Shown: in pieces, positions 1 to 37,892 of the stretch
Numbering within the stretch: the stretch's first letter is position 1
Layout: each line of letters begins with the position of its first letter
Origin: Jimgerdemannia flammicorona
Taxonomy: Eukaryota
Direction of reading: 5' to 3'
DNA: 37,892 nt
Assembly: GCA_003990765.1 (NCBI GenBank)
Contig: RBNJ01000174.1
Span: 1 to 37,892, forward strand
The notes under the pieces: generated by a model
The model's input: only the letters and a program-made list of their open reading frames with translations
What the model was told of the DNA's origin: nothing
Databases searched by the model: none
Made by a program: the position numbers and the translations under genes

Positions 1-1985
1 TTTTTTTGGCTTTTTCACTTTATATCGGCACTCTCCAAAAGGTGTGGACACGATAGTAAAGTGGCTGGGATAATGGATATCTCAATTTCTGATTAAATGT
101 ATTACTCAGCAACTAGACCACTTTGTGTTCGAACATATTGCGCATCATTGCCTCGCACAAAGTGTCGTCCACTACCGCATTTACACCTCATATAAAAAAT
201 CCCAGACATAAAAAAGCTACCCTGGTGTGGTATACGGTATGCCGCTTGTTGGGGTGGGTAAATAAATAAATAAATCCTCTGATTGAGTAATGCGGCGAAT
301 AGGGTGCGAAAGCGATCCATTCGTTCCAAAAATATATCGATGTTGTAGACGCTCATTATCGTTCCGCGTGTAATTGCCACAACCGTGCAAGGTTTTTGAA
401 TCGTGGTCATCACGATAGTAACCTCCCTTGGGTGGTTGTGTTGAACTTCAAATTGCACATCGGAAACTGAATGCCACAAGCGCTACCACTTTTACGTGAG
501 ATAAATCTATTCGGATCACGTGTCAGCGTTACCAAACGAAAGCAATATATTGCCGCGCACGTTGACCTCTTATCTAGTTTTTTGCTCTTTTTTTGCATTG
601 CCAATTCATAACTTACACATTTTGTTTAAGTTTTTTCCACCATCCCTTACCAACTGCACATTTGATGGGATTGTCTCCGCTTCGAGGATTGACCCTCGTG
701 CTTTCGCAAGTGCAAAATCAACCAATTCACCTGTTATGGAAAAAGTGGAGACATTTTACTTGTGTAGACAAGAAAAGGGGTGTTCAAATATTGAGACCGA
801 AATGGTTAATGTCACACTCAATCTTGGAAAATATTTCTATATTCATTTGACTGACTTGAGAGCAAGTCATCGAAGGTATCAGTTTTACTCAAGAATTTAT
901 TATTTTTTATTTTACCTATAGGTTCAATATGAGAAAATAAAGTAGAAATTATTTGTCAAATATAATAAAGAAAATAGTGTAAAGACCATTTTATTGTAAT
1001 TTATCAATATCTGAGTCAATGATATTCTCTGAGATTGATGAAAATAATAAGAATAAGGATACTAAAGATTAAGATAATAAAAATATCATCAAAGTCAAAC
1101 TAAAGCAGATTTTATATATACTACTATAGCTAAAAGTCAGGTATGAACTAAATCAATTATACAACTTATGTCTATATCTGAGAAAGTATTAAAAAAGAAT
1201 ATTATGAAAAAGAGTTATAAATATAAAAAGATAGATTTGAAAATAAGACTTTATAGAGATAAAAAGATATTGAATTATATAAGAAAGAAATTCAAGTATA
1301 AGAAAAAAAAAATTAATAATATATAAATATTTTAGAATTAGAGGTATAATTTTTTAAATATAATTTATAATATAATAAGAAAAAAATTCTATAAAAAATA
1401 TAGATAAGTTTTTAATATAAAAGTTATATAATTGAAATATATACTCATTTAACTTTTATAAATATATATATAACCTATAGATTAAAGAAATTCTTTTTTT
1501 TTTATTTTTTATAATTTATAAATATGAAATACTAAAGCATTTTATCAAAATTCCACTCAATATATTTATGAACTAAACTTATATATTTGTTAAATTCTAT
1601 TTTTTTAGATGAGATATTTATATATATCTTTATATTGAAAAAGAATAAGCTAAATTACTATGTAAATTTATTAATATATATACTATTAGTGTTATAGTAT
1701 ATAGAATTAATTATTCATGAAATTCACTTATAAAATATATATTTATATATTATACTAATAGATAAAAAATAGATTAGTTAAATATAAAATAATTCTAATA
1801 GATATTGTAATAAACCTATATACTGATAGAATTAATATATTATAGATAATTAATAGTGACTATTGGTCCAAAGTTCTGAGTTTTTAAAGAAGTACTGAGT
1901 TCTAATTATCTATTATAGTAAAGTTTAGATAACACTTTCAGATTCTTATATAGTGTAATGGTGACCTCAGAATGATGACATCAGC

Positions 1986-2996
1986 ATGGAAGACAGCCTT
2001 TTCTTGCAAGCCACTAGATTGGAATACAAGAAGATCATATGGCATATGAGATGAGCAATAATGACCAACTGTGAGTCATTGTGACTACAGTACAAGCATC
2101 CTGAAGAATATAAAAGAAGGATCAAGAAACTGCAGTAGCAGTAACCAACAAGAACCACTAATCCCAAATTAGCTCAAAGACTTACTATAAATGAAATATC
2201 TGTTGTCTGCCAAACCTCAAGGTCAAGGAACTACCAAGGTATCTCAGTTGAAGAAAGGATGTTCCAAGACATCAGAAGAGCTATGAGGACCTGCTCAAGA
2301 AGGACTCCTAGTATCAACCTGGGTATTGCAGACCTCTATCACTTTATTCTCTACCACCATGAAATGGAAACAAGGATCACCATTGCTACTGAATGCCTCC
2401 AAATGTAGCAGGTATATGAAATAGGAAACCTCCTCTGCCAGAAGTTCCCATAGGTCAGCACTCAAGAGCTACAAGATACCACTCCCATGGATATACATGA
2501 AATAAGGACAGCTAAGAAGATCCATCAGATCTTCAGGTATGTACCATGGTTAATCCCCAACTTGGAGTATGTTAGAGTCTCAGATTTCAGAGACCTGTCA
2601 TCCTGCTATATCAATGCACTAGAAGCCAGGGTAGCTACAGAAGCCCAGTCCACTATCACCCTCAATAGTGATGAAGTAGAAGACTTCTGGCACCCTATCC
2701 TCCAGAACAACCCAGACCAATTTCTGCAAGAGTTGATCTCAGTATTCCAAGGCCCAAGCATCCAGGTTAGATCTCCCCAAGACCCCACATTTGTCCCCTA
2801 TTTTGTGGAAGAGAACCTCATAGACTGGAGAGCCCCAGACCTCCTCTCCACCACTGAATGTGATGATGTTATCCCACACAACATCAAAGTATATGAAATG
2901 TATGATCTATATGATGAATTTACAGATCTTATCTCCTTCAGTAATAATGATGATAATAATGATGAAGCCTTCATGGTTCTGAACTTTCTGCTCTAA
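1986..2996 (+). pseudogene. Accessory ORF inside the 5' LTR of element A (266-336 aa, unknown function)
   Basis: One reading frame from ATG 1986 (or 2196, which is ATG in the 3' copy) to TAA 2996. Stops at 2406 and 2451 are TGG and CAG in the other LTR. Confidence 0.8.
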
Positions 2997-3006
2997 GTTC
3001 TTTGTT

Positions 3007-3135
3007 ACACTGGATAATATCAGTACTGGTATTCTCATATAACACTGGATAATACCAGCACTGATATTCTGAGGTAATACGAAATTGTTCCAGTACCAGT
3101 ATTCTGATGTGATACTGAATTATATCAGTATCCTG
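3007..3135 (+). repeat. Degenerate 35-bp tandem array (about 3.7 units) in U3 of element A; also present in the 3' LTR (~10225-10353)
   Basis: Units start at 3007, 3042, 3077 and 3112, e.g. ACACTGGATAATATCAGTACTGGTATTCTCATATA and ACACTGGATAATACCAGCACTGATATTCTGAGGTA. Confidence 0.8.
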
Positions 3136-3235
3136 AACCTGTACAACCATTAGTACTGACCCTGGAACTTAGTAGTTTTAGTTATTAGAATTTATATTTA
3201 GCTTTATATCTTAGTAACTATTGAATTATATTTTG

Positions 3236-3268
3236 TATAAATACCCCTCTTATTTCCTCTGAAATAAA
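3236..3268 (+). promoter_or_regulatory. LTR TATA box (TATAAATA) and polyadenylation signal (AATAAA) of element A
   Basis: TATAAATA at 3236 and AATAAA at 3263; both retained in the 3' LTR. The same arrangement occurs on the minus strand in element B's LTR (10841-10848 and 10783-10788). Confidence 0.65.
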
Positions 3269-3474
3269 GTCAGTTCTGGTTTCACTTACACACAATCTGC
3301 AAGCAATCTAAGAGATAATAAGACAGTTTAAAGATAAGAAGTTTGAGGACTATAAGACCTTGGGAAGGTACTCCAATAAGAACTTGCTTATAACAAACTT
3401 GAGTTAGTCTAAGAGATATACCTTTAAGAGAATCTGGTATATTTGAAGAACTCAGCAACTACTACATGACAACT

Positions 3475-3489
3475 TGGTATCTATTGGCT
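3475..3489 (+). other. Primer binding site of element A (tRNA not assignable)
   Basis: TGG-initiated tract 3 nt after the end of the 5' LTR. Confidence 0.6.
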
Positions 3490-5435
3490 GGTGATTCAAG
3501 ATGAATCCCTCACTCTCAAGCTAAAAAACGAACAACTCCACAATAACTACCCTGACTACAAGAGTTACCCCTGCAAGAATTCAAGATAAGATGGAAATGT
3601 ATCCCCCCACATTCTATAGATATACTACTGAAGAGTCAATCCTGACCTTCATTGAAGACTTTGAACAATTTGCCACCATACAAGTCCTTGGTGTGGATGC
3701 TTAATTGGTCCTTCTACCAGTCAGTCTCAGAGGACCTGCCAGAGACAAGTTCAATGCAGCCACCATTGCTGATGCTAGTGCAGCCAAACTTGCCAACATA
3801 AAGGCCTTCCTCAGAACAACATATTATACCAAAGAGATCAAGCAAGCTCTCAAGGATCAACTCAATACTATCTGCCAGGGACTTAGTGAAAATCCCAACT
3901 CATTCTATACCTGAATCTGTCACCAGATTGTCTTGGCTGGCTATGATGACCACCTCAAGGAACAAATAGTGGATTCAACTTTCCTCAAAGGAGTTCACTC
4001 TGAAATTGCCCTAGCAATCCAGTCTACCCCAGCTGCACTGACCCTTAATCAGAAAGTAGTCTTTGTACAGAGATATTGGACTGCCAGACACCCTGCTGAA
4101 CACTCAATGGGGAAAATAACTGGCATTAAGATGGAGCCATCAAAGCCAACTAGTATCTTACCCACTACAGTTGTAAACAGACAACCAATCCCATCTACCC
4201 CCAAGACAGCCAAAGCTGACCCAGTGGAAGAACTTGCCAAGCAGTTTACTGAGATGACTACACACCTTAGTAATGTTGTTAGAGAAGTCCAAAGTGCCAA
4301 CAGGAGACCAGTGCAGAGATTTGTAGCTACTATAGAAGAATGCAATATTATATACTTCAGATGCAGAGAAGAAGGCCACTATGCAAAGAATTGCATAATC
4401 AAAACAAAATGCAAAGCCCAACCAAGCAATGCTAGCAGAACCAGAGAACAAACCAATGCAGTAGTCATTGAGGAGATTGGTGATACTGATGATGAAGAAT
4501 ACTATGAAGAGCTTGAATTCTACCCTGCTACTGAAGGTACCAGAACCCAGTCCAAGCCCTGTGACAAGAAGAGCAACAGTAAGCCAGTTGGAAGACCAAA
4601 GAAGACCTCAGCTATCACTATTCAAAGTAAGACCCAACCCAAGGAGATTGATCAAGACATAGAATTAGATAAAGCTGCCCACCAAATTATTAAAGGCACT
4701 ACTCTAGTCTCAGGAGAAAGTGAAAGCAAGAAGAAACAGAAGCTGTGCAAGACCAAGATCTATTAGTATTACATCTACAAGGACCTCAAGGAACAGAAGG
4801 TCAATGCTACTTTTGGACAACTATCCAAAGTCCCTGCCTTCAGACAGCAGTTGAGAGTAGGACTTGCAACTACTGCTAAGAATCAAGAGTACAAGATTAT
4901 AGAAGCTCACAATGCACAGAAAGAATCTGAGAACTTAGGTGAAGAATCTGAAGACCAGCACAAGATATCAGCCTATACTCTATATCAGATTGAAGACTAT
5001 ATCTTTGATGCCATCATTGATACCAGTGCTGGAGGATACCTCATGAGCAAGAAGGCAATTGACCACCTAGGCTGGGATATTGAAGAGTCTACCAAGATGG
5101 TCTATGTTATAGCAGATAGTACATAAGCTACCCCCCTTGGCAAAATCTGAGAAGTCTCCATCAAGATAGGAGGAGCTACTATCCCAGTAGACATGATTGT
5201 TACAAGTGCCACCAACTATAACATCCTCATTGGCAACCAATGGCTTCACAAGGCCAAGGCCATCATTGACCTCAATGCCCAGAAGATACAGATCAACTAT
5301 AGAGGAAGAAAGGTACAAGTTTCTATCAATGTCCACAAAGGAGTTCTATCAGATATGGAGGAAGGAGATGAAGAAGACACAGAGGTCTTCATACACTTGA
5401 TGAACAAGAACAAGAATAAGACACCCAAGCTCACA

Positions 5436-5567
5436 GATGAACAGTGGTATAATAAGATCATCAATAGCTATGCCCCTCAAGGAAGATGTCCCCATAGTAC
5501 TAGGATGTACTACTCTGAACACCTGAATGACTGCTGGTCCTGTATCAGTGAAGTCAGGAAAATCTAC
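5436..5567 (+). other. Cys/His module between protease and dUTPase in element A
   Basis: DEQWYNKIINSYAPQGRCPHSTRMYYSEHLNDCWSCISEVRKIY (C-x-H-x8-H-x3-C-x2-C); homolog in element B. Confidence 0.7.
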
Positions 5568-5684
5568 CAACAGAAACACAAGTAAGAAGCTACCAAAGCA
5601 TAAAGGAAAGCCAAAGAAGATGACCAGCCCCCAGAGCTCCAAGCTGACAGTGATGATGAGAAGGAACAAGAATCAGACATCACC

Positions 5685-6093
5685 CTCAAGGTCAAGAAGT
5701 TTCACTCTGAAGCCAAGATCCCAGAATATAAAACTAAAGGAGCCATAGGAATGAACCTTGTCAGCATTCAAGATGCTACCCTCAAACCACAGACTACCAC
5801 CCTACTTAGCACTGGAATCAGAGTCAAGCTGCCAGAGAACTATGCTGGAATTATCAAGACCAGGAGCAGTCTGGCCAAAAGCGAAATCTCAGTTGAAGGA
5901 GGAGTAATTGACCCTGATTACACTGGTGAGATCTTCCTTTATAGTCAGAAATCACAACCACACCACCTCCTTTGAAGTCAAGAAGTATGATAGGATTGGC
6001 CAGATACTGATCTATGAAATCAAGAAGCCCAAGATCATTGAAGCCATTGAACTCATCAAGACCAAGAGAGGAGAACAAGGCTTTAGATCTACT
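5685..6093 (+). pseudogene. Trimeric dUTPase domain within pol of element A
   Basis: Motifs AIGMNL, RSSLA, GVIDPDYTGEI, DRIGQIL and RGEQGFRST; one frameshift near 5935. Confidence 0.95.
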
Positions 6094-9000
6094 AAAAGAG
6101 GAGCCTATACCACTACCAAGATTACTGAACTCAAGCACAAGAGAGACAAGGACCAAAACAAGCACACATATACCATTGGAGAAAACTTTCCCCTGGAGGA
6201 ACAACTTCTCAAGATCCTGTACCAGAATGAAGGAGTACTTGCTACAGACTTTAGGAATATCCATAATCAAGAACCCAAGTACTACCATGAAGTTGACACT
6301 GGCAATACTAAGCCCATCTACTAGAAAGCCAGACCCATACCACCTACCTACAGAGAGTGGCTGCAAGCAGAACTCAAGGAAATGGAAGAAGCCAGAATTA
6401 TCAAGCAAGCTATCAGCCCCTGGGTTTCATCCATTGTCCTTGTCCTGAAGAAAGGAAGCAAGCCTAGAGAGTTTGCACCAAGACTCTGCATTGACTACAG
6501 AAAGCTCAATACCATCACCAAGAAGGATAGACAGCCCTTGCCAAATATTCAAGAAATCCTTACCACCCTTGGAAGTGAAGCCAAATACTACACCACCTTA
6601 GATCTGTTCTCAGGCTTCTATCAGATTGGTCTCACTCAAGATGCCAGTGAGAAATCAGCCTTCATCACACCTGACACCACCTATATCTATCTGCAAATAC
6701 CATTTGGAATATACAATGCCCCAGTAAGTTTTCAGTGAATGATGAACAGAGTCTTCAGCAATGAGATTGGAAAATGGCTCTTTGTCTATGTTGATGATAT
6801 GATCATCTTCAGCAATACTGCACAGGAACATATCAATTACATACAGCTAGTCCTCAAGAAGCTCAAGGGGTATGGCCTCTACATCAAGCCCAAAAAATGC
6901 AAGTTTGCAGCTCAAGAAATTGCCTACCTAGGACACCTCATCAACCAGACTGGGATCCACACAGACCTCATAAAGATCGAGGCTGTAGCAGCCTACCCAA
7001 GACCCAGAACAACTACAGAAGTCCATGCCTTCCTTGGACTGGCCAGCTACTACTGAAGATTCATCAAAGGATACTCCAATATTGCAGCACCTATCTATGA
7101 GCTACTGAAGAAAGAGACCAAATTTGAATAGACCAAAAAGTGCCAAGAAACCTTCAATGAACTTAAGACCAGATTGACCCAAGCACCTATCCTCAGAAGA
7201 CCAGACTGGAACCTAGAATTCATCCTGCAGACAGACATGAGTGCTATAGGACTTGGAGCAGTCCTAGCTCAGAAGAAAGATGGATATGAATATGCTATCT
7301 TCTATGCAAGCTGAGGTACCTACAGAGCAGAACAAAACTAAGAGTCATGCAAGCTCAAATACTTAGCAGTAGTTTGGGTAGTAGACAAGTTCCACTACTA
7401 CCTAGCCAAGAAACACTTCACTATTCAAACAGACCACTCTGCTCTCACCTGGCTATTCCACACTCTGAACCCCAAAGGAATATATGCCAGATGGATCTAC
7501 AGGCTGTAAGAGTATGACTGTACTGTCAAGCACTGCTCAGAAAAGACCAAAACCAATACTGATGCACTCTCAAGGATACCTCGAAACACCCCCATCAAGA
7601 CTATTCAACATAAATAAGAAGCTATACTATGGATTAATCAACTATCTTGGATAGTGGAAGATGTCCAACCATCTTAAACCTTAGATAATCAATATTATCA
7701 ACTAGACTTGGAAATAGTTTGAACTAGACAACACTATACTCAGAAAAGGAGAAAAGCTAGTAATACCCAAATATAAGAAGTATCAAGTAATGAAGGAAGT
7801 ACATGAGCAAGGATACTTAGGAGGAACCAACACATACAATAAGGCATGAAGAACCATGTGGTGGCCTAAGATAGAAGAAGACCTGTGCCAATTTGTCAAA
7901 GGGTATAACAAGTGCCAAAAACAGAAACAAGATCAGCAAGACCAGGTACCCGGGTCATCAAGAATTGAGCCTATCCCATTCCACTACATTGCAATAGATA
8001 TCATTGGACCACTACCAGTAATACTATCAGGAAACTGCTATATTATAGTTATTGTAGACCTCTTCACCAAATGGATAGAGGCAGGAGCATTATAAGAAGC
8101 CAATGCCCTCTCTATAGCTAACTTCCTACACCAAGAAATCATCTGCCACTACAAGACACCAAAGCAAATCACAACAGACCACAGAACAGAATTTGTCAAT
8201 GGATTCCATGAGATAATGTATCAGAAATACAAGATCCAGCACATCAAAACCACTGTGTACCACTCTCAAGGAAATGAGAACTAACAAGATCCTCAAGAAC
8301 ATCCTAGCAAAGATCTCAGAGACATATGAGAATTGGGATAACTATCTCCCAACTGCCCTCTCTGTTCTATGAGACATATGGTCACAGAACACATACTTTA
8401 CCCCAAGAGAGCTGCTCTTTGGAGAAGAAGATTCTGATGGAACCTCAGCTATGAATCTAGACCTAACTTAGAGACAGATTGATGCAGAAATCTGGAGACT
8501 ACACCAAATCAAGAAGAAGGCTGAAGATTATATCACCAAGTCACAAGCACTGACAAGGAAGAATGTAGAAAAGAATAATAAGGCCCTAGAACTCATCTGA
8601 ACTAGAGAAAAAGTTCTACTGTATTGAAATATGGTAGAAGCCTCATGGTTATGAAAACTGGAGCCCAAATGGAAAGGACCCTTCTATGTACAAGATATCA
8701 AGGGAACCACCTTCTGGCTTAGAAAAATCTCAGAGACCATACTGCCTACTATAGTACATAGGAACAGACTCAAGAAGTACTACAAACCTATACAAGAGAA
8801 GAAAAATGTGATGACTGCCTGTGAGGTTCTAGTCCGTGAATCATAACAGCATGTCCTGTGACCAGCAGGCTATCTGTCTGGACCATTCTCTAAGGAATAT
8901 GGCACTGGTAACTACTCATCCATGAGACTTTCAAAGTCAGAGAAGATCAAACCATCAACTGATTGGTCAAGATCAGAATCAGGCCCTTGCTCTATATGAA

Positions 9001-9159
9001 GGGAGCAACCCTTCACCATTATACCAAAATACAAAGGGAAGACACCAGCCCATAAATATCACTTTTCAACCCCTTGTCAGAGGTTATGGGATCAACAAAT
9101 TTTTCAGAACTGGACCAATGAATAAGGATATTCGAGAAGATCCTTATTCAGGAGAAAGA

Positions 9160-10691
9160 TGTAACAGTGACTTCAGAATGATAATATCAGCATGGAAGAC
9201 AGCCTTTCCTTGCAAGCCACCAGATTGGAATACAAGAAGATCATATGGCATACGAGATGAGCAATGATGACCAACTGTGAGTCATTGTAACTATAGTATA
9301 AGCATCCTGAAGAATATAAAAGAAGGATCAAGGAACTGCAGTAGCAGCAACCAACAAGAACCACCAATCCCAAATTAGCTCAAAGACTTACCATAAATGA
9401 AATGCCTGCTGCCTGCCAAACCTCAAGGTCAAGGAATCACCAAGGTATCTCAGTCAAAGAAAGAATATTCCAAGACATCAGAAGAGCCATGAGAATCTGC
9501 TCAAGAAGGACTCCTAGTGTCAACCTGGGTACTGCAGACCTTTATCACTTTATCCTCTACTGCTATGAAATAGAAACAAGGATCATCATTGCTACCAAAT
9601 GCCTCCAAATGTGGTAGGAGTACAAAATAGGAAATCTCCTCGGCCAGAAGTTCCCACAGACCAGCACTCAAGAGCTACAAGATACCATTCTCATGGATAT
9701 ATATAAAACAAGGACAGCTAAGAAGATCCATCAGATCTTCAGGCATATACCATGGTTGATCTCCAACTTAGAGTATGTTAGAGTCTCAGATTTCAGAGAT
9801 CTGTTATCCCACTATATCAATGCACTAGAAGTCAGGGTGGCTACAGAAGCCCAGTCCACTATCACCCTCAATAGTGATGAAGTAGAAGACTTCTGATACC
9901 CTATCCTCCAGGACAACCCAGACCAATTCCTGCAAGAGTTGATCTCAGTATTCTAAGGCCCAAGTATCTGGGTTAGATCTCCCCAAGACCTCACATTTGT
10001 CCCCTATTTTGTAGAAGAGAATCTTATAGACTGGAGAGCCCCAGACCTCCTCCCTGCTGCTGAACGTAATGATGTCATCAGTGGTGACGTCATCCCACAT
10101 GACATCAAAGTATGCAAAATGTGTGACCTATATGATGAATTCATGGATCTCATCTCTTTCAGTAATAATGATGATGATGATGAAGCCCCTATGGTCCTGA
10201 ACTTTCTGCTCTAAGTTCTTTGTTACACTGGATAATGCCAGCATCAGTATTCTCATGTAATACTGGATAATGCCAGTATCAGTATTCTGAGGTGATACAA
10301 AATTGTTCCAGCACCAGTATTCTGATGTGATACTGAATTATATCAGCATCCTGAACCTGTACAACCATCAGTGCTGACCCTGAAACTTAGTAGTTTTAGT
10401 TATTGGAATTTATATTTAGCTTTATATCTTAGCAACTATTGAATTATATTTTGTATAAATATTCCTCTTATTTTCTCTGAAATAAAGTCAGTTCTGGTTT
10501 TCTTATACATAATCTCTTGCAAGCAATCTAAGAGATAACAAGACAGTTTAAAGATAAGAAGTTTGAGGACTATAAGACCTTGGGAAGGCACTCCAATAAG
10601 GACTTGCTTATAACAAACTTGAGTTAGTCTAAGAGATATATCTTGAAGAGAATCTGGCATATTTGAAGAACTTAGCGACCACTACATAACA
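9160..10691 (+). repeat. 3' LTR of element A (1532 bp)
   Basis: TGTAACAGTGAC...CTACATAACA; preceded by the PPT and followed by the TSD ATAG. Confidence 0.96.
9192..10214 (+). pseudogene. Accessory ORF inside the 3' LTR of element A (second copy)
   Basis: Same frame as the 5' copy. Stops at 9615, 9894 and 9954 are sense codons in the 5' LTR. Indels between copies within the ORF are +15 and -3 nt. Confidence 0.8.
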
Positions 10692-10975
10692 ATAGATAGA
10701 AATGAGCATACTTATATTCTAAGTTAATCAGACTCAGAATCATTAATAAGTTAGATCTGAGAGTTTATGATAAGAATACTACTTTATTCTTATATATGGA
10801 AAAAGTAGAGCTGATATTATAATATACTTAGTATAGAGAGTATTTATATTTTCAAAGGCTATAACTAAATATGGTATACTGAATACATATATTTATATAT
10901 AGTTATACTACTTTAGATAACTATAACTGCTAGTTAGAAATTATATAGAAATTTTAATAGGAATTTTTATCAGAA

Positions 10976-11420
10976 ATTCCAGAGCCTTGTAATGATTTAT
11001 TATATCTTTTATTTCTTTACTTAAGCCTACTCATTAGACTCAGTACTAAACTCTAGATATTTATCAAACTGGAGAGCAGTATACTAGACTACTTGAAAAA
11101 TAATTTTTCTTCATTATTCATTACTCAAATTGATAATATTCTCAAAGGATACTCTATAGAGATAGTTAAGAACTTATAGTCAGGTGCAGAAAAGAACATA
11201 GAGTCTCTTGACAACTATATAGGTATAGTTGTCAATGAAAAGACAGACTTATTGTTTGGTAGTACTAAGGGTAGCTTATTGATAGATGAGATATCCTATC
11301 TTATACTCCTTAAGTTCTTATTAGTAGCAAAAAGCTTAGAAATATTATATTCTTCCAAGATATTATTAAGCTTTATTTGAATTAGGGTCTTCAGAGATTT
11401 GAATGTTAACAGCTAGTGAG
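10976..11420 (-). pseudogene. Accessory ORF remnant 3' of pol in element B, homologous to the LTR ORF of element A
   Basis: ELKEYKIGYLIYQ*...IVVKRLYVLFCT*L*VLNYLYRVSFENIINLS aligns with EYEIGNLLCQK...TAKKIHQIFRHVPWLIPNLEYVRVSDFRDLS. The start is not resolved. Confidence 0.65.
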
Positions 11421-11669
11421 TCTATAGAATTTCATTGGTGTTTGATTGCTCTTAGAATGGTAGTAGTAATTTTGTTCTTGACTAGTTCTCAGTATCATTA
11501 TTAGATACTTATGTTGGGAAGATAGATGGTCTATACAGAATTGTTCAGAATATTTGTACTTCTCTTTATAGGGTTATTTAGAAATATGACTATCTTTTAG
11601 AAATTTTATCAGAATTTCTATTATATTAGATTTCTATATTAAGTTACTACTTCTTCTATATTGGACAAA

Positions 11670-14493
11670 AGATTATCTTCTTTTTTTCAGTTAATATTAT
11701 ATTCAGAGTATTCTTTCTATTTCACAAGGTAGTATTAAGTAGGCTTGATAGCTTATCCAAAATGGTAATCCTTATAATTCAGAATATAGTCAACTTTATA
11801 TTTTAGTTTCTAATTAATAATTATTTGATCTAAAGATAGAATAGTTCTTTTTTTAAAGATGTTTGGAGTATATAGCTAAAGTTAGAATATGTGAAACATT
11901 GGATGGATTTTCCCTAGTATTGCCAGAAGGTCCAACTTATATGCAACAGGTCTGTATTTTTCAAAGATCTCAAAAGTCTAATATAGCAGAGTCTAAGCTC
12001 CTTTTTAAAGTCTATATTACTCAGAGTCAGTCACTGAGTATTGAGTAATACTTGTTCTCCTATTTTGTAGATAACTTCTCTTCTATTTTTATCAATATAT
12101 ATCATTTATATTCTTTGTACTTCTATGAGAATATCTTGTACTTGCTAGATATTATCTTGTATAGTATTGATAATTTCTTGTGTTATAGGTACTATAGTTT
12201 GAGTTGATATTATAGAAGTTTATAGATATTTTCTATAATTCAAGTAAAATAGTATCATCTTAGTACTTATACTTGGGCTATTATTGTATGTAAATTTGAT
12301 TAGAGTTAGTTTTTTATCTTAATTATTTTGCTTAGATACTAAGTATCTGCTTCAGGATTTCATTTATTCTTTCTATCTAACCATTTGTTTATAAATGGTA
12401 TATTGTAGATATTTTCAATTACACTCCTAAGCTCTTGAAGAGTGTTTGTCAAAAATTACTTATAAACTTTATATTTTAGTCTGAGATAATTGCTGAGAGT
12501 AGTCTATAAAGACAGAACACATTATCAATAAATAGTTATACTTTTTTTGATACTATTGCAATAGTGGTTATTTATAATAAAGTAAGTCTGTTTGCTGAGA
12601 TGATTGATGAAAATGACAATCACATTCTTTCTCTTTTTAGTTTTTGGTAACTAGACAATAAAGTATATTCTGATGTAGTCTCAATTCTAGATAGAGATTG
12701 GTAGTAGTTATAAAGTACTAGCTAGTATCTGGTTGCTAGACTTATATCTTTAGCAAACATTACAAGATGCAATAGAGTTCTTGATATCAGATATCATTTT
12801 GGACTAGTAGAAGTCTCAAGCAAAATGTTAATATACATATCTTTCCAAAACTCATATATCTGACTATAGATATATCATATAGTTCTTATAGAATTTATAA
12901 ATGAATAGAGATATCTGAGACCCAGATTCTTATATTATCAAGATATATATATATATATTCATTTTGGACAAATATATTCTTATAGACCTTTTTCATAATA
13001 TTGCTACTTTCTTCAAGGATTTATCTGGTGATTTTTTTATACATTGGTGTCTTTGGTGTACTCTTTCTTAATTTCTTCAAATAGGCTAGTGATAATATTA
13101 CTAATTACAGTAAGGTCATCTTTCTGAGCACTTCAGGAGAGTATATCAGCTACTTTATTCTGAGTTTTAGCAATGTACTTTATTTCAATATTAAATGATA
13201 TAAGAATCTGAATCTATTGGATCTGTCTTTTTGTAAGGATTGACTATGTCTAAATATATTAGCAAGTTTGATAGTCAGTCTATAAGGTGAATATTTTATA
13301 AAGAAGAAAATTTCTCTATAGCTATAGAGATCAGATGACTGCAAAGAGTTCTTTGTCTTATATAGTATAGTTTCTTTTATATTTATTGAGTTTCTGAGAT
13401 AGATAGGCAACAGAGTGTTTATATTGAGTCAGAATAGCTTCAATCACAATTTTTGAGGTATTGATAGTAACTACAAAAGGTCCTGTTAAGTTAGGACTGA
13501 TCAAGATTAGTATACATATCAGTCAGAATTCTTTTAAGGGTATTTAATACTATAGTGTATTTTTCTGTCTATTCTTTTTCAATATTAGTATCTTTTTTGA
13601 TAAGACTTATGAGTGGAGCTGTAATTGCAGAGAATTCTTAAATAAATCTCCTATAATATTCTACTAGTCTATTGAATTTTTATAGAGACTTAAGGTTCTT
13701 TGGAATAGGTCAATTGCAGATTACTTGGGTCTTAGGATTAATGACAATACCATTTTCAGAAATAATATAGCTTAGATATTTAATTTCCTTCTTAAAGAAA
13801 TAGTATTTCTTTCTTTTTTCTAAGAGCTTATATTTACTGAGTATATCAAAGACCATTTATAGATATTGTTGATAAATGATATTACTTGTACTATATATTA
13901 GGATATTATCTAAGTAGACTAGAATAAATACTCTAAGATATTTTTGGAAGATATCATTTATTAATATTTAGAAGATTACTAGTGTATTAGTGAGACTGAA
14001 GAGTATTATGTAGAATTCATAATATCCAAATCTTGTTTGAAAAACTATCTTGGAGATATCTTCTTCTTTGATACAAATTTAGTAATATCCAGATATGAGA
14101 TCAATGAGTAAAAAGGTCTTGGCCTTATATACTTAGTTAAGTAGTTTATCAATTTTTAAGAATATATATTAGTTCTTAATTGAAATCTTATTGAGTGCTC
14201 AATAATCAATATATATATAGAGGCTTCCATCCTTCTTATAGATAAAGAGAATTATTGTATCATATAGTGATTTTAATAGATAGATGAGATCTTTACTTAT
14301 CAATTCTGTTAGTTATTCCTTGAGGGTTTCTAGCTCAGATTGGGCTAATTAATAGATTCTGCAATAGAGTAGATTTGAACTGAAAATATCTTCAATATAA
14401 TGTTTTACTGCTTGAACTAATGGTAGTTTTTGAGGTTCTTTAAAAACATCTTCATATTTCTTAAGAAGTTCTCAGAGATTATCTTTCTCATCA

Positions 14494-14495
<2 letters not shown>
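11670..14495 (-). pseudogene. pol of element B: RT, RNase H, integrase, chromodomain
   Basis: LLKKYEDVFKEP, KKDGSL..IDY*ALNK, DLISGYY*I, FQTRFGYYEF, VYLDNILIYS; RH FVVTINTSKIVIEAILTQ; IN tail PVAYKLDL...KIHPMFHI; chromodomain KYKVDYIL...YYLVK*KEY at ~11700-11810. Confidence 0.9.
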
Positions 14496-14538
<43 letters not shown>

Positions 14539-14578
14539 GTCACTTGGACTCTGCCATTTATTACCTGTCTATTAAAAT

Positions 14579-17500
14579 TTTACAGTTTACCCTCACACTA
14601 CTCAATCCCCATAGGAGTACCACTCCTCCGACTTACATAGACAAAGACCATCTTTGCACCCACCACCCCAACCCTCCCCCCACTCTGTCTACAGATTTGT
14701 TCTACCAAATGATGCCTTCAACCCCCCTTCAACCTTCAACCCAGCCACCAGCCCATCAAGGTGTCTTCCATAAGGCTATGTCACCTCATCAGCCTGACCT
14801 CAGAGCCAAGTTTTCTCCTATTCTCAAAAACAAATAGCCAGTGACTGGCCAGCCCTACCCAAATGGCCAAAGCCCACCCTAATATCAGCCATTCTTTCCC
14901 CACCCCCCCCTCCAGTCTATCCCTTAAATCCTCCCAATACTCCCACCCATTAACTCTCCTACACACTACTCTCAGATGATCTCCAATATTCTGCCAAAAG
15001 GTACTAAGTACCTCACACTCTCCTAGCCAATGTTCAGGCATCTGTACATATCCTCCTTCCTGCCCTACATTATAACACTCTTCACAGTCAAAACAGCCTC
15101 CCTTGATAAGGTAACTAGAGCGGAAGTTGAGCATGACATTTCACCTCAGTATACACCACCAGATCACCCAGTACTTTGGTGGCAGCCACCTCCTCACCTT
15201 GGCACTCCAGGCCCATATACTATACCAGTCCCACTCCTCGCCAATTCCTACACCCTGCCAACTGCTAGACCACAGATCCTGGCCTGGTCCCCATTGGCAT
15301 TTGATCCCATCACCAATGTCAAACTCAAGTAAGGGAATGCCACCTAGTAACACTCGATCCCATTGTCACATTGCTGGGTCCCAAGCCTCCTCCCCTTCAT
15401 TTCCCTGTCACCTAATCTCAATGCAGCATGCCTCTTCTACCACTCCCCACCAGAAGCCTTTATACCATAATTGTCCAGAGTTCTGAAGGCCCATAAGCGC
15501 TAGGAGGTCACTCATCGAACCTCTTGGAGAGGACCTCATCTCCCAGACTTTCTGCAGTAGGGGAACCCAACCACCCCCTCTCAACTCCACTGCTCTCTTC
15601 AGCCACCAAGCTCTCAAGCAGTATAGTCTCTTAGGAAAGTCGACCAGCCCAAGTCCCCAACTTGCCACTAGTAAGGACAAGACCTCTCAGTTGATCTGAC
15701 TCCACCTTCTAGCCAATCTATCCCTTGGCCAGCTTCATCAATCACTTCACCACCCAAGCCAGGAAGTCTAGATAATAAGATACTATATCTTTGGCAGCCA
15801 ATAGATATTCAGAATTAAAATGCATCCTGCCAGAGACAATTGATGGCCCCCCCAGCTCCACAGGGCCTCCTCCCAAATGCCAACCCACTGCTCCCACCAA
15901 AGTCTGGGCAGAACCAACCCATATACTGACAGATAGATATCCAAGTACTATACTGCCTCACCAGCAGAGACAATAGTACCAATAATCTCCCCACCCACTA
16001 GACCATTGCCTAACACCATTGTTTTGCACTTATGCTAATTAAGCCTAGCCCCAGAGTTTGCCTCATACCACTCCACTGTCTCCTTGAGCTCCTCAACATC
16101 CGCAACTGATCCCCAACTGACCACTATGTCATCTGCAAATGCCCCTACTTTTCACCTGATGCCAAAGATAGAGAGCCCCACTATCTTCCACCTGATTCTG
16201 TCCATGAAGGGCTCCAGAGACAAAGCATACAAAATGGGGGACAGTGGGTTCTCCTGGAGCACCCCCCTACCCAGGGGAAATACTACCCCTCTATGTTCAT
16301 TACACATGAGTGCCACCCTACTCCCTTCCAGTAGGCTGACCATAGTAGTCCTGAACTGTTGTGGGACCCTGATCCTATCCAAAACTTTTGCCAACCAAAC
16401 CCATTGTACTCGGTCATAGGCCTTCTCTTGGTCCAAAAAGACCAGATACCCATCCAGTCCACTGGCTCGTGCCCCTTCAATAATGCCATGTACCCATGCT
16501 ATACCATCTCTTATGAGCCAGTCTCTAATGAAGCCCCACTGCTCCTCACCCAAGACTTGCTGGACCACCTTTTGCAACCTTACGACTACCACTTTGGTAA
16601 CCAACTTTCTGTCCATATCCAGTAGCATAATCGGCCTCCAGTTCTTCTAGTCCTCTCGGCTTCCTTTGTTCTTATAAAGCAATATCACTAACCCTAGGTC
16701 CTGTTCTTCCACCCATCTCCCTATCTGTAGAATCCAATCACACAGTGCCATCATCTCTCCCACTATTCCAGGAACTCCCACCATCCTTTTCCAGAAGTCC
16801 CAGGGCAGACCATCCTCTCTAGGTGCTGTACCCAAGGTTGTCGCAGCAAGAATCTGGTGGATCTCCTCCTCTAGCACTAGCAGTACTAAGTCATCCAACC
16901 CAGCTGCTCAGGTAGGGTACCAATCCTCCAAAGCTCGATCAATGTCCTCAGCACCTGCCCCACCCTCCTCCTTACTCCACAATCCACTCCAATGCTCCTT
17001 TAATGATCCAAGAATATCTTGTACCCCATGCACCAATGAACCATCAGCATTAAGCACCCCTTCCTACCTTTGCTACACTCTTCTCGCCTAAAGGGCCCTT
17101 GTAAGAAACTTCAAGGGCTGCTCTCCTTCCTCCAGCCCCTGCCAATGAAGCCATGCTGCCAGACCCTGGACTCTTGCCTCTTCCTCATTCTGCAGCACCT
17201 GTTGTAGTTCAGCTACCTCCATTTGTAACCTTATTGATTGCCAGTCCTCCTCTCCCTCCAATATCACCAGTCTTGCCTAGTTCTCCAAGAGTCTAGATAA
17301 TCTACATAATGCCCACTATACCCACCACCTCCTCTGCCTCCCTGCCTCCATACCAGCCTCACTCCAGAAGGCCCTGGCCATCTCCTTCATCCTCATCCAC
17401 TGAATATCAACTGCGACCCCTCCCTGCCTCCAATACTCCACCTGTATTTGAATGACTTTGGCCTATTTACCCCACTGGATCTTATCTTCTAGTAGGGAGG

Positions 17501-18248
17501 AATTGAGATGCCAATGTCCAGGCCCATCCCCACTCCCCCCAAAATGTCTCTGCCCCAAAAGCCCCCAATAATCTGACCAAGGACACCATTCTACCTCCAG
17601 CGACTTCCAAACATCCAGGCCCCAGCAGCTAGCTGTCAGAATCCAATCAATCCTTATCCCCAGGCCCCCAGCCCAGTGTGTGTACACCCTCCTATTCCCC
17701 CAACATTCTCTACCCACATCTACCAGAGCACTAAGTCTTTCCACTTCCTCCCATGCTGCCAGTCCTCTACTCCACTCCACAGCACCTCGTCCCCCATCAG
17801 TTCTATCCCTCAATATATCTCAGACCATATTGAAGTCCCCACTGAGTACATCTACTCCAGCCTCTACAAAAATCCCACTCTCCTGTAGGCCTGTCACCCA
17901 ATTCACCTGCTCGCCCCATACTGCAGGGCAGTAACAGGAGTCCACCATGACAGGCTCTCAACCTGCATATAACCACTCTCTCCAGAACAATCTATTTCCT
18001 CAGCTCTGCATATCCCGTATCTCTCCTCTGCCCTTCCACACCAGAATTCCAACCTTGCCCTTCCAAACTGCCTCACCTCTCCACTCCTTCATCCATTCCA
18101 GTCTATCCAAGTCATCCTTACACCTGACATCCTGCAAGAGAAAGAGATCAGCCTCCAATCCCTTCAGCTAAGTAAAAATGTTCTTACATTGATAAGCACC
18201 CCATAACCCATTCACATTCAAAGAAAAAATGTTGGTTGTACTATTCAT
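14579..18248 (-). pseudogene. LINE-a ORF2: APE endonuclease, reverse transcriptase, C-terminal Cys/His knuckle
   Basis: MNSTTNIFSLNVNGL, LFLLQDV, RIDWIL, WSDY, LDQEKAYDRV, GVLQENPLSP, AFADD, CEEC...EHWLGEC. The 3' end is approximate. Confidence 0.93.
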
Positions 18249-18259
18249 GAGAGAAATTA

Positions 18260-20225
18260 TATAGTTTCAGATGCGTCCTCTACTGCTCCATGTCCACTTT
18301 CTCCTGTGCCCTATCCAGGTTGCACTCAGCAATAGCTTCTGCTTCCTTGGTCCTCTTAGCCTCCAATTTAGTCAGGATTTCCACCATCTCCCCATCCTCC
18401 TTTTCCTCAAACTCCTCATGGTACTCCAAACAAGCCTCCTGTCAGAGCTACAGTCCATGCCTCTTAGTCTAATAGTGGACAGCCTGCTCACCCACCACAA
18501 CCACCAGAGCAGCTTCCCTCTCCTTATCTACCTCATACCCCTCCTCTTCCAAGTATATCACCAGAATTTCTGCCTTCAATGCTACCACCACTCTATCTCC
18601 TTGCAGGATCCTTGCCCAATGCTCATTGCTCATCACTTGGAGGTTGACTTCCCCCAGCTCTTCTGCTGCTAAGTTGTTCATTATTTGGCATACCCAGAGT
18701 AAGTTTCCTACCTCCTTCCCTCCTGGGGTCACTGGCCTCCCTCCATCCAACATCATAGTATCAGCCCCTATACTCACTGACTCATTCCATCCCTCCTCCA
18801 GGACATCCACCAATTCTCCTTTCCCAGTCGCCTTTACCAATTCTCCCTTCTCTACATTTGGGACTCCAAAGCACACCTGCTGAGTACCACACATCAGTAC
18901 ATCCTCCATCACTCTACCTTTCGCCACTGGACCCCTTCTGATAAGGGGAGAGGGTGAAGGTGAATCCTCCCAGGTTTCCTCCCAAACCTCCAGTGTGCCA
19001 TCTTCATATGGATTCTTGCTTGGCACCTTCATGGCCTCTACCTGCCCCCCCTCCTCGTTCCACTCACTACTAGCAGCCCAGACACTCACCTCAGCACCTC
19101 CAGCAGTTGCACTATCACTTGCCTTCCTTGTCACCTCTACCCCCATTTTCACCAACAATTCCCTCTGTCTTCTGCACTCTTGGGACCTCTCCCACACCTC
19201 CTTGTTGATGCAGACTCACTTTCCTCCAACCACCTCAAGATGCATTGCTGCCTCGAATGCCTTCCATACTTTTGCCCTCCTCTAACTGCCCCACTCAACT
19301 CCTCTAGCACTTCCAGCAAATCCTTCTCCTCCTCCTCACTCCCCTTTACTCTTGTCACCTTATACAAGATAGCCCTCCACACCATCACTGAGGGCCAGTT
19401 CTGAGCCTTCCCAGTAGCCTCCTGCCCAGCCAGCTGAATCCTGATGTCAACATCCCCTGTCTAGAGAGAGATTCCCTCCCACACTCTGAACCCAATATTG
19501 ACCACCTCTCCATACTCCACTATAATCTCCTCAACTCTCTTCCTTGTTGCTATAGCAGTAACAGTGGGAACTCCTTTCACCAGAAGCTACACTACTCTCA
19601 GGTCCCACTGCAGGCATCTCACCATCAGTATGCACACCTTGCCCACTTTCATCCCAGCCTTCAAAGCCTCCTCCAGTGGCCCAGCCTCCTCTAATCTCAC
19701 CTCCACCCCTTTGAGGCCCTTCAGGAACTTAACAGATGCTGCCTCACTCATTTGCTTCACAATCAGCCCCAGAACCATTTTTGCCATCACCGCTAAGCCC
19801 CGGAAACACATTGTGATTGCAAATTCCAAGATTGACTTCTTGAGTAATGGAGCTACTGCCAGTTCTGTTATACCATCCGCTAGGTCCCCGGGCCTCATAC
19901 CCTTCCCACTGCTCGGCTCACCATCAGCAGTCCCATCTAGATTTTTTTCCAGATCACCCATCACACCCCTATCAGCAGTCCCTGCCTCAGCCACTACCCC
20001 CCCAGCTCCACCCCTATGGCCCTCCAGAGGGGTACCCCTATGAGGTTGCTGCCTGGTAGTCCTTACTGGCACCTTCTCCCCCCTCAGCCAGCTCTCCAGT
20101 CCAGCTCCCTGTTGACCCCCCTTCACCTTCTCCACAAAGCTCACTCTGCCAGACCCTTGACCTCCAGCTCTGCCCCCTCCTCCACCACATCCTCCCACCA
20201 GCAGGTCCCTCATACTACCCCCCAA
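18260..20225 (-). pseudogene. LINE-a ORF1
   Basis: Long minus-strand frames (19587-20225 and 18469-19197) whose sequence recurs in LINE-b and LINE-c (SFxxKVK, DLAD...LLKKS). Confidence 0.8.
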
Positions 20226-20396
20226 GCCAGGGCCTCTCCCTATTTACTGCCATTCAAATGCTCCAGGGCCACTCTGCCCAGTATGCACCCCAGGATACTC
20301 ATTGGTTGCCATGATACTAGTAGCTTGTCTCCAGAAACTATATCGAAAGTATTGCCAAAAGATTGTGTAACCTGAATGTTACCAGAGAAAGATGCA

Positions 20397-22390
20397 CTTT
20401 CTCATCATCTTTATTCTTCAGAAGTTCAGAGAGTTCTTTATTATCTTCTTCTGGGGTCTTCTTAACTATATATATATAGATGTGCTGATCTGATTTCTGA
20501 ATCAGTTTTTTCATCTGAATAGCAGAGATAATGTCACATCTGGACTTCAGTTTCTTCTTATTATACTCAAGTTGTAACTTGATATCTCCTAGAGAGAACA
20601 TATTGATTTATCAATCAATGTGGGGGTTTTCCTATTTGAGCCAGAATTTTCTAGAGATGAGATTATATCTAGAGAGATGTATAATGTAGAAAGTTTGTCT
20701 TGTGGTGTAGTTTTTGAGTTATTGAAGTACATTCTTATATATCTTAGAGAGTTTCTGTATTGTTCTATTTCCAAAAGTGATAATGTTTTCTTCTGGATTC
20801 TTTTGCATCTTGACATAGAATTTATCAGTAGTTTCTTGGTCTAGATAGTATTTACTTGCTCTACTCTTAATAAGGACTTCAACAGGGTTTCCTTCAATCT
20901 TTCCTTGAAGGCAGATATATTTAGTATTAGTTTCTTACTAGGTGACAATTGTTTCTGAGATAGTTTCTTCTTTCCAATCTTGTACTTCTCTATCTTCATT
21001 ATTGATATTCTTGATTTCTTTATTTTATCATTCTGGAATTATTAGCTTATACTTCTTGAATTCAAGAATACATTTGATGCATTCTTCTATATACTTGAAA
21101 TAGTATATATATCTTGAATCTATATAGATATCATCCTATAGAGATATATCTATTAGTAATGCACTGATATTATTTCTGATCTCAGTCTTGAGATTCTTCA
21201 ATATAGACAATCTTCTATACCTTAGTTTTCTCTTTGGCTTTATTAGAGTACTTCTTCATTGATCCAAAGGCTTTTTCTTCTCTATTAAAAGGTAATAGTT
21301 ATTTTGTTTCTTCTACTTAGAGATCATTATATATTACTTTTATGATAGCTTGGTTGATTCATTTTCTATATGTGATTTTGATGGCCTTTTATTCAGTATT
21401 ATATAGTAGGATCTTAATTTTATCTTTGAATCCTTAGTCTACAACTCCTTTAGTTATACAGAGTCTTTCTTCTTTAGCCAAACTACTCCTTTCTATAGAT
21501 AGATATAGATTTCTTTGAAAACTTCCATTCTAAGACCTATACTAATGATTGCTTACTTGTCTGATTTAATAGTCAATTCTATACTAGAGTAAAGGTCATA
21601 GCTAGCATCTAATTTATATATCTTATCTGAGATTTTTATAGTAATATGAAATCTCTTAACCTTGATTTTCTTGGTAGTTTCTTTTTGGTTATCTCCTATC
21701 ATAGTGATAGTGTGTGAGAAGGATGGTCTTTTAATAGTATTAGTCTTCTTGTCAGAATATTCATAAGATATATATTTTTTAATTTGTAGTAAAAACATGC
21801 TCTCTTCTTCATAAGTTCTTTTATTTCCTTATTAGACAGTTTCTTAAATTTTCTTTATAGTCTTGAGAACTTATTCCAGAATTTATACTTCTTTTCAAAT
21901 TGGTATCATTTATCTCCTTTGTTGTTATTTATATTATCTCTTGGTCTTTGAACTATAATAATAATATATACTTGGATAATAGCTTATTCTGAGCACTATT
22001 GCTTATGTGAACAATAATAGAGTTATTTTTGTTTATAGATTTTTCTGATAGCTATCTAGGGATAGTATCAAAGAAATAGGTAGCTTAGGGTCCATTTACA
22101 GTCTGCTCTCACTAGCTATATTCTACTCTAATAGTATTCAGAAGTGTTTCTAATCTTATAGCAAATGCTTTAAGATCTTCTTTTCTGTTATTGTAAAATT
22201 GTAGATTCTTGAGTTTAGTTCTTCAGCAATATGAGTAGAGCTTCAGAACTTCTGGATAATTAGCTCTTTTAGATCTATAGTAGTTAGATAAGCTTTATGA
22301 TCAGGATGATTATCTTCTTCATTACTTATAACAACTTCAGTATAGAATTTACAAGTAAGAGAGTATACTGATAGATTGTACTACTACTGA
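20397..22390 (-). pseudogene. gag, dUTPase, Cys/His module and protease of element B
   Basis: Decayed zinc knuckle KKLSNKEIKELMKKRACFYYK (~21790-21850); protease GKIEGNPVEVLIKSRAS and NLISRKFWLK*ENP (~20620-20910). Confidence 0.85.
21257..21669 (-). pseudogene. dUTPase domain of element B (between gag and protease)
   Basis: KIKVKRFH, DASYDLYS, IERSSLAK, GVVD*GFKDKIKILLYN, INQAII and REEKAFGSM: all five dUTPase motifs in order. Confidence 0.9.
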
Positions 22391-26866: not shown

Positions 26867-27593
26867 CATTAATACTGAGTATATATATATATATATATAT
26901 AATAACTAATTAGAATTTAAGTATATATATTATATATATATATTATATTAGTAAAATTATAAGATCTTATCAATTAGTTAGTTAAATATATATTAATATA
27001 TCAAATTAGATATAATATATACTAAAGTAATATATATAATATGTTAGCTTTAGTAATTTATTAATATATAGTTTATAGTAATAATTACTAATATAATTTA
27101 TAATATATAATTAATATATATATTTTGTTAAATCTTAAATCTTATTAAAAAAAAAAAAAAAACTATATCTATTTTAATATTAAGTATATTTAGATTAAGT
27201 TTTGTAGTTGAAATAATAAATACTTTAGTTTAAACATATTTATTATTATAGTCAATTACTATTTATATTTGTAAGATAATAATAGTAATATGGCTATATA
27301 TAGATTATCTAAAGTATATTTTTATAATTTATAATAAATTTTCTAAACTAAGTAAATTGTATAAATTTTATAAATTATATAATAAACTTTATAAATATTC
27401 AATAATGGTATTCAAACTCTTAGAAGAAAAATTTACAAGAAAATCTATATAGTGCAATTACAATCTTATAAAGATTTTAATTTAGAACTATTAAAGTAAA
27501 TTTTAAAAAGAAATCTTTATAGTACAAACTCTTTATGATAAAATCTCACAAACTTGAATTTTTTTTATAGAATATTCAACCTCGAGAAAGAGA

Positions 27594-31795: not shown

Positions 31796-31797
<2 letters not shown>

Positions 31798-31834
<37 letters not shown>

Positions 31835-36332: not shown

Positions 36333-36373
<41 letters not shown>

Positions 36374-37861: not shown

Positions 37862-37892
<31 letters not shown>

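Follow-up and report, generated by a model that had tools for sequence, protein, structure and literature searches.

The window analysed here, a 37,892-nucleotide stretch of Jimgerdemannia flammicorona DNA (contig RBNJ01000174.1), holds two decayed Ty3/gypsy retrotransposons, which we call A and B and whose reverse transcriptase (RT) sequences place them in separate lineages. Both seem to carry three accessory parts: a dUTPase, a short Cys/His motif, and an additional open reading frame (ORF) that lies within the long terminal repeat (LTR) in A and overlaps it, downstream of pol, in B. An earlier note on this DNA had read the three parts as a kit shared by two different gypsy lineages. The lineages do differ and both elements have a dUTPase, but the idea of a single kit fails: the dUTPase occupies a different site in each element, that of B is not A-like, and the order of the Cys/His motif and the dUTPase is reversed between the two. 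We lean towards a reading in which A and B are nested dead elements, the dUTPase was captured separately by their lineages or shifted position, and B gained the Cys/His motif and the LTR ORF through recombination.

The window was mapped by self-comparison and by read-through translation with all frames scanned against Pfam, and proved to be largely transposon debris (Table 1). B is a chromodomain gypsy element on the minus strand (not on the plus strand), has 26–29% GC, is split by a 5.9-kb long interspersed nuclear element (LINE), and has had its 5' end cut off; it stops at about 22390 against a 3'-truncated second LINE copy, and a search within the window for the 5' LTR of B found nothing above shuffles. 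A is nested in the 3' LTR of B, since, in a second copy of the B family (31007-31777), the two flanks of A (1800-1912 and 10715-11243) adjoin (self-blastn), and a transition-tolerant DNA alignment pairs 1506-1927 with 30717-31138. B would accordingly be the oldest of these insertions, interrupted later by the LINE between its protease and RT and by A in its 3' LTR. The extent of 1806 to 22390 originally given to the two elements needs correction at two places, as 1806-1953 is B LTR rather than A and 14499-20396 is LINE rather than B.

The ratio of observed to expected CpG was 0.04 in A, 0.00 in B and 0.01–0.11 in the three LINE copies, against 1.07 in a cytochrome P450 gene that the transposons surround; the loss is therefore aimed at repeats, and the note's suggestion of a host that mutates repeat cytosines holds in a CpG-specific form. 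Between the two LTRs of A, 140 of 150 differences were transitions, mostly at former CpG sites (the alignment overhung the LTRs by a few bases), and other A-family copies in soil metagenome contigs mainly have C or G where the window shows T or A. We read the region as dead transposons nested in one another, within a genome whose repeats are stripped of CpG. Ordinary searches fail on B because of this decay, and since B has lost nearly all of its CpG and much other C and G, we wrote a transition-tolerant aligner in which a T or A of a codon may be scored, with a penalty, as having once been C or G; scores from it are called tolerant scores below.

A has the paired LTRs (89.3% identical over 1537 columns by self-blastn) and the flanking target duplication (4 bp, ATAG, at 1950-1953 and 10692-10695) of an integrated Ty3/gypsy element, and Pfam places its integrase after the RT. 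Its order is gag with a CCHC knuckle, protease, Cys/His motif, dUTPase, RT, RNase H and integrase; the related protein P0001 has a zf-CCHC domain at the place that matches the knuckle of A. The order in B is gag, dUTPase, Cys/His motif, protease, the LINE insertion, RT, RNase H, integrase, SH3, chromodomain and LTR. As the note had stated, B carries a chromodomain and A does not: with the P0023 chromodomain as query the tolerant score was 91 in B, where the Pfam Chromo model gave no match on the decayed copy, versus a best score of 37 in A, inside the integrase core, where Pfam likewise gave no chromodomain match. The frame of A past its GPY/F-like end runs into non-coding sequence. The gag of B is too decayed to be placed in a lineage.

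An RT tree was computed from 69 rows, namely A, B and 67 RTs from databases, all from dUTPase-bearing elements. A fell in an 11-row clade (Shimodaira-Hasegawa-like approximate likelihood ratio support 99) that included all nine rows labelled by eye as bearing the Cys/His motif. All 15 chromodomain rows were in a 29-row clade (support 88) that also took in B, whose branch is long and whose composition is skewed, so that its exact place within this chromoviral clade is unsure. Forcing A and B together as sisters lowered the log-likelihood by 46.4 units (approximately unbiased test, p = 0.018); the sister relationship, one of the outcomes that the earlier note had set against its proposal, is rejected, and the RT sequences support two different gypsy lineages. 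In tolerant rankings of the 67 database rows, the top four for the B RT were P0024, P0041, P0038 and P0023, with the Cys/His-clade rows at ranks 31–56, and for the A RT the Cys/His-clade rows made up eight of the top nine. A candidate home for A is the Ylt1-like lineage of fungal gypsy elements that lack a chromodomain (Ylt1, Tca3 and relatives), which is named in PMC2864245.

The A family was abundant in several soil metagenome runs, with 6348 pieces in one run and 29 of 29 A bins covered; the adjoining B flank (10703-11000) was nearly uncovered in soil metagenome contigs. Joints in these contigs link the two LTRs of A, as repeats would give, and are not evidence of splicing. Window sequence was found in sequencing runs amounting to 12 rows of nine studies, in small shares, with no RNA run among them.

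Both elements have a dUTPase, as the note had it, each above the Pfam gathering cut-off of 22 bits (PF00692; 56.8 bits in A, 26.5 in B), and both copies carry frameshifts and stops. A base at 5938-5940, which breaks the dUTPase frame of A, is absent from part of the other A copies in metagenome contigs. Retroviral dUTPases are established as keeping dUTP out of cDNA, and the enzymes of A and B most likely did the same during reverse transcription. Their site differs, being protease, Cys/His motif, dUTPase, RT in A versus gag, dUTPase, Cys/His motif, protease in B. A search with the spacer-plus-dUTPase region of an intact relative found 150 dUTPase-bearing retroelement polyproteins, of which 121 were examined for domain order: 30 had protease, dUTPase, RT, 27 had the dUTPase after RT or RNase H, two (one from Phlebia brevispora) had it before the protease, and in 48 the match was limited to the dUTPase segment, many of these being copia-type by their Pfam lists. 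Badnaviruses were also among the matches. In the nearest RT relatives of B (P0023, P0024, P0038 and P0041) the order is protease, dUTPase, RT; the dUTPase follows the protease immediately, which leaves no room for a Cys/His motif between them, and none is present.

By tolerant ranking of 119 rows, the B dUTPase had chromodomain rows at ranks 1, 3 and 4 and Cys/His-clade rows at 5, 26, 39 and lower, with small margins (157 versus 141); it thus appears nearest to chromoviral dUTPases and not A-like. A 121-row dUTPase tree was discarded for B, whose end branch of 3.65 made its placement meaningless. Since its position differs and the B copy is not A-like, we suggest that the two lineages captured the dUTPase separately, or that it shifted within pol; the RT tree cannot tell how often it was gained, because all of its elements bear one. 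The dUTPase part is nothing new, and both layouts are already in print. According to the passages of PMC2864245 that concern them, gypsy families of Postia placenta have a dUTPase at the amino end of Pol, at its carboxyl end or in the protease-RT interval, and PosPlaTy3-3, -4 and -5 of that fungus, elements of Phanerochaete chrysosporium and Tmt1 of Tuber have one in pol at a B-like or A-like place. The same passages conclude that basidiomycete gypsy elements seem to have taken up their dUTPases independently, each from a different source or several.

Eleven relatives of A carry the Cys/His motif between their protease and dUTPase, in one to four copies (judged by eye), in the forms G(R/K)C(P/K)HG.(R/K)FY....C..C or CP(F/I)C..R(V/I)YCAE..C.C. 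A Pfam scan of these spacers gave nothing relevant, and the pattern was found in none of 20 further dUTPase polyproteins, 14 of which have a chromodomain. The motif is a hallmark of the RT clade of A and is probably zinc-binding. In B, the A motif aligned at 21132-21052 with a tolerant score of 61.3, about six standard deviations above the scores from 200 shuffles of the 2-kb 5' part of B (mean 36.2, standard deviation 4.1, maximum 47.5; 0/200 reached 61.3), and in 36 frame-by-segment trials on real AT-rich stretches from the window it ranked first, with 49.9 in second place. The B site keeps the CxxC half intact, at the same spacing from the first Cys position as in A. Another reading of the same B bases, frame-0 'GRCPHGLRFY' with transitions reverted, overlaps this frame-1 reading, so that at most one can be real, and it was dropped.

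The third part is better documented in A, where an ORF on the sense strand lies wholly within each LTR; an alternative in-frame ATG is found further upstream, at 1986. When 1.84 billion representatives were searched exhaustively with phmmer, six proteins matched at E up to 0.001: P0003 (83% identity, 1.3e-121), P0005 (66%), P0004 (43%), P0006 (35%), P0008 (36%, 1.3e-4), and P0007, a repeat protein whose match we regard as spurious. The relatives all come from metagenome collections, where the only name given is 'hypothetical protein'. A family hidden Markov model (HMM) built without the window rows scored the ORF of A at 2e-106. The stops in the window ORF correspond to W and Q codons in P0003, and its C, H and Y residues to R codons, which fits CpG decay. 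A scan of metagenomes for ORF loci gave one 1.5-kb contig, L001, with an intact 291-residue ORF of this family, and two viral-contig scans gave none. In L001 an upstream frame at 1-152 resembles, by eye, an integrase end of GPY/F type, with no chromodomain seen; if it is one, the ORF would follow pol immediately, as it does in A.

Could the ORF be a mere open stretch of LTR that gene callers have taken up? No Pfam family matched any of five members, a profile search of PDB sequences gave no match at E up to 10, and the best ESM Atlas score of 0.88 was under the 0.9 lead level; with relatives that are unnamed metagenome calls, this is what a stretch with no working gene might give. An AlphaFold model from a nine-row alignment also tells against our view of the ORF, as it had a mean pLDDT (predicted local distance difference test) of 40 and was unusable. 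Against the non-gene explanation, however, blocks of residues and 12 invariant columns stay conserved in the family even where identity over about 240 residues is as low as 35%, and non-coding LTR would not stay open and alignable at such distance. Because its relatives stay stop-free and alignable at 35% identity we take the ORF for constrained coding sequence, so that the non-gene explanation seems barely credible, and on this comparison the LTR ORF is a real, uncharacterised protein-coding family. Its members are about 245–340 residues long, with a mostly helical body and an acidic tail studded with conserved hydrophobic patches (LI(S/T)F, VLNF); in the last 70 residues D plus E number 12–21 versus 2–4 for K plus R in all five members examined.

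Both LTRs of A keep, downstream of the ORF, a TATAAA and, 27 bases on, an AATAAA, and on this ground we place the ORF in U3; short repeats occupy about 3010-3130 between the ORF and the TATAAA. These two motifs may be the promoter and the poly(A) signal, and would put the U3/R boundary there. The mouse mammary tumour virus (MMTV) sag gene (in U3) and the foamy-virus tas/bel genes are likewise sense ORFs downstream of pol, in or over the 3' LTR. The sag-type arrangement, a sense ORF within the LTR and upstream of a putative promoter, is seen in A, while B shows LTR overlap only. The place is similar but there is no sequence likeness, and A is an intracellular element without env.

In B, four members of the ORF family (P0003, P0006, P0013 and P0008) aligned by the tolerant aligner on the same frame, downstream of the chromodomain, and on the same core, EY.IG...K+.....F......Y.RVS....LS. 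The scores were 83 for P0003 (0/100 shuffles reached it; top of 13 real control segments 67), 92 for P0006 (0/100; 77), 71 for P0013 (3/100; 69) and 66.2 for P0008 (0/100; 67.4), with shuffle means of 48–58, so that the remnant beat all 13 controls for three of the four queries. The remnant overlaps the part of the B LTR that B shares with its second fragment, B2 (from 11243 down), and the layout therefore resembles that of A.

A number of results weigh against reading these two B matches as genuine. With plain tblastn the A motif gave a 22-residue match to B at E 0.44, and the three frames of A gave RT, dUTPase (E 0.003) and weak matches only. The family HMM matched B at 11311-11108 with an independent E-value of 1.7 and a negative bit score; in an hmmsearch of all six window frames only the two ORF copies of A were significant. 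A plain Smith-Waterman comparison of the A ORF with the 3' region of B scored 39, below 19 of 20 shuffles. When the motifs of five relatives of A were used instead, their B-site scores were reached by 6, 74, 43, 22 and 51 of 200 shuffles, and the overlapping other-frame reading of the same B bases is also motif-like; two such frames over the same bases imply that short matches arise easily under tolerant scoring. B2 shows no ORF signal, with 4–60 of 100 shuffles reaching the observed scores in B2a and 58–90 in B2b; B2 is even more decayed than B and is split by a LINE at the place of the ORF. The B family is represented here by decayed copies, none intact, the tolerant scoring is home-made, and the likeness may be inflated by A and B having decayed toward the same letters.

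These points could all be accounted for if only the dUTPase were shared, through independent capture, and the motif and ORF remnant in B were chance matches in AT-rich, decayed sequence. Standard tools give nothing significant for either match, B2 does not replicate the ORF signal, none of the five relatives' motifs singles out the B site at 0/200 shuffles, the same bases are motif-like in two frames, and one real control outscores the remnant with P0008. Chance would nevertheless have to put both matches on the coding strand of B and at the places expected from the layout of A, one beside the dUTPase and the other past pol and over the LTR, and give all four ORF queries the same frame and core. 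It would also have to account for the rank of the A-to-B motif score above shuffles and real controls and for the agreement with A in the CxxC half and its spacing. The HMM match, too weak on its own, is the sole non-A match in the window and lies on the coding strand of B just downstream of the chromodomain. Weighing these, we consider chance on the whole somewhat unlikely; the Cys/His motif in B is quite probably a genuine copy, and the remnant probably belongs to the same accessory family. The homologous Cys/His module and the homologous extra ORF proposed earlier thus stand for A, and for B as probable only.

If both matches are genuine, the parts might still owe nothing to exchange, as a common ancestor could have had the dUTPase, motif and LTR ORF, with most chromoviral lines losing the last two and B reordering what it kept. 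The A clade and the chromoviral clade do fall in one 44-row group of dUTPase-bearing elements (support 91), and both clades most often have the order protease, dUTPase, RT. The tree rows were chosen for their dUTPase, however, and so give no evidence on the ancestry of the trait; the motif is absent from all 14 chromodomain polyproteins checked, and the dUTPase of B lies on the other side of the protease than in its nearest RT relatives. The independent dUTPase acquisition concluded for basidiomycete elements in the part of PMC2864245 that treats them also speaks against common ancestry. Compared with exchange, vertical descent needs many losses and is the less economical reading, and we consider it quite improbable.

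Of the three parts, then, only the Cys/His motif and the LTR ORF may plausibly have been exchanged between the lineages, and their copies in B depend on weak matches; the dUTPase of B is not A-like. The note's proposal that the parts moved between lineages survives for two of the three. B would have gained motif and ORF long ago by recombination of co-resident retroelements, possibly by template switching between co-packaged RNAs, the kind of mechanism put forward for the ORF3s of rotifers (PMC5408684). Any exchange must be ancient, because no nucleotide-level likeness remains between A and B.

The LTR ORF is perhaps a trans-acting regulator or an adaptor to a host factor, expressed, as MMTV sag and foamy-virus Tas are, from a subgenomic message, but this is a guess. 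A fuller version of it, in which some fungal-type gypsy elements are 'complex' retrotransposons whose undescribed U3 gene encodes a protein with an acidic tail that acts in trans (as a Tas- or sag-like regulator or a silencing antagonist) and was passed, with a novel Cys/His zinc module beside the dUTPase, between non-chromodomain and chromovirus lineages of the same genomes, strikes us as unlikely.

Elements with some of these features have been described. Juno, Vesta and TelKA of bdelloid rotifers resemble A in having no chromodomain and a dUTPase between protease and RT, and in Juno the dUTPase is followed by an extra zinc knuckle, whereas in A the zinc motif precedes it (PMC5408684, in its passages on these elements). 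The same passages describe family-specific ORF3s that are common to unlike retroelement types and explain them by modular exchange through RT template switching; these differ from the orphan family of A in their animal host, their position between pol and LTR, and their env-like, GDSL or DEDDy character. Among fungi, brtn of Boty/BcGypsy1 from Botrytis cinerea is an extra ORF of unknown function in a gypsy element, likened here by its description (bioRxiv 10.1101/2021.04.13.439636, in part), and a figure legend of PMC2864245 marks an 'add. ORF' of unknown function in fungal gypsy elements. Section 5 of that paper mentions neither a Cys/His motif beside the dUTPase nor an LTR ORF in basidiomycete dUTPase elements, and overlap with A and B is possible. 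In our literature search no gypsy element of a fungus came up that combines a dUTPase and a Cys/His motif beside it with an ORF inside the LTR; Repbase, GyDB and Dfam lay outside the search, and the layout may already be catalogued.

Modular sharing of accessory genes is already known. In A, the Cys/His spacer and the orphan gene family of the LTR are real and uncharacterised, and their presence in a second, unrelated lineage is plausible. If motif and ORF are traded functional modules, fungal elements would gain accessory genes in the modular, retrovirus-like way for which vertebrate retroviruses and bdelloid rotifers have so far been the main documented cases. Soil sequence data hold the ORF family in abundance, and it is not known to have relatives; the ORF would then be a candidate for a regulator or counter-defence factor that a transposon encodes in hosts where repeats are methylated and mutated. 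As the window copies are dead, it is the families that are of value and not this locus.

Table 1. Features of the window, with positions on the forward strand and the strand on which each feature reads
Feature	Position	Strand	Evidence and remarks
A, whole element	1954-10691	+	Ty3/gypsy without chromodomain
A 5' LTR	1954-3471	+	1518 bp; TG..CA ends
A accessory ORF, 5' LTR	2259..2996	+	about 245 residues; two in-frame stops at former W/Q codons
A TATAAA / AATAAA, 5' LTR	3236, 3263	+	motif scan, reading of the LTR tail
A gag	3525..4985	+	CCHC knuckle CFRCREEGHYAKNC; read-through translation
A aspartic protease	4989..5250	+	Pfam gag-asp_proteas / RVP_2
A Cys/His motif	5487..5543	+	C-P-H-x12-C-x2-C, between protease and dUTPase; translation
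A dUTPase	5709..6093	+	Pfam PF00692, 56.8 and 22.5 bits in two frames; frameshift near 5938-5956
A RT	6448-6936	+	Pfam
A RNase H	7132-7515	+	Pfam
A integrase H2C2	7763-7930	+	Pfam
A integrase core	7976-8263	+	Pfam
A 3' LTR	9160-10691	+	TG..CA ends; preceded by polypurine tract AGGAGAAAGA
A accessory ORF, 3' LTR	9465-10214	+	second copy; three stops
A TATAAA / AATAAA, 3' LTR	10454, 10481	+	motif scan, reading of the LTR tail
B gag remnant	21700..22390	-	decayed zinc knuckle; weak alignment to P0001 gag, z = 4.1
B dUTPase	21239..21657	-	Pfam PF00692, 26.5 bits; one frameshift; aligns to P0031 and P0048 dUTPases
B probable Cys/His motif	21052..21132	-	between dUTPase and protease; CxxC half intact EECIKCILEFKK
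B aspartic protease	20593..20907	-	tolerant alignment to P0023 and P0041 proteases, scores 132
B pol 3' part	11603..14414	-	Pfam; tolerant alignment to P0023 domains
B RT	14414-13521	-	Pfam; tblastn against A RT 29% identity, E 7e-27
B RNase H	13510-13199	-	Pfam
B integrase	12827-12392	-	Pfam, H2C2
B Tf2-type SH3	11974-11870	-	Pfam E 1.2e-5, under cut-off
B chromodomain	11818-11603	-	tolerant score 91 against P0023 chromodomain; directly after SH3
B probable accessory-ORF remnant	10930..11335	-	downstream of chromodomain, overlapping B 3' LTR
B 3' LTR, distal part	1506..1953	-	cut from the rest by insertion of A
LINE copy 1	14499..20396	-	Pfam RVT_1, 158 bits; poly(A) tail 14499-14535; inserted between B protease and RT
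LINE copy 2	22396-26421	-	without its 3' 1.4 kb; abuts truncated 5' end of B
LINE copy 3	~31798-37606	-	(TAA)n-type tail; ~20 bp duplication; splits B2
Second B-family fragment (B2)	30717-31797 and ~37625-37892	-	LTR and 3' region, ~70% identical to those of B
Cytochrome P450 gene	~28740-30640	+	at least four exons; introns ~35-45 bases

The three LINE copies are of one non-LTR family, with about 66% mutual identity. Copy 1 is flanked by a 16-bp target duplication, CTTTCTCATCATCTTT, at 14483-14498 and 20397-20412, and the junction of copy 2 with B suggests a deletion that took both ends. Beyond the 5' end of copy 2 lies an inverted repeat of about 220 bases at 26907-27147, 72% complementary, within a (TA)-rich stretch. 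B2 sits directly downstream of the P450 gene. The first 1000 bases of the window have 38% GC and open frames at 102-482 (minus strand) and 505-921 (plus strand), with no Pfam match in any frame.

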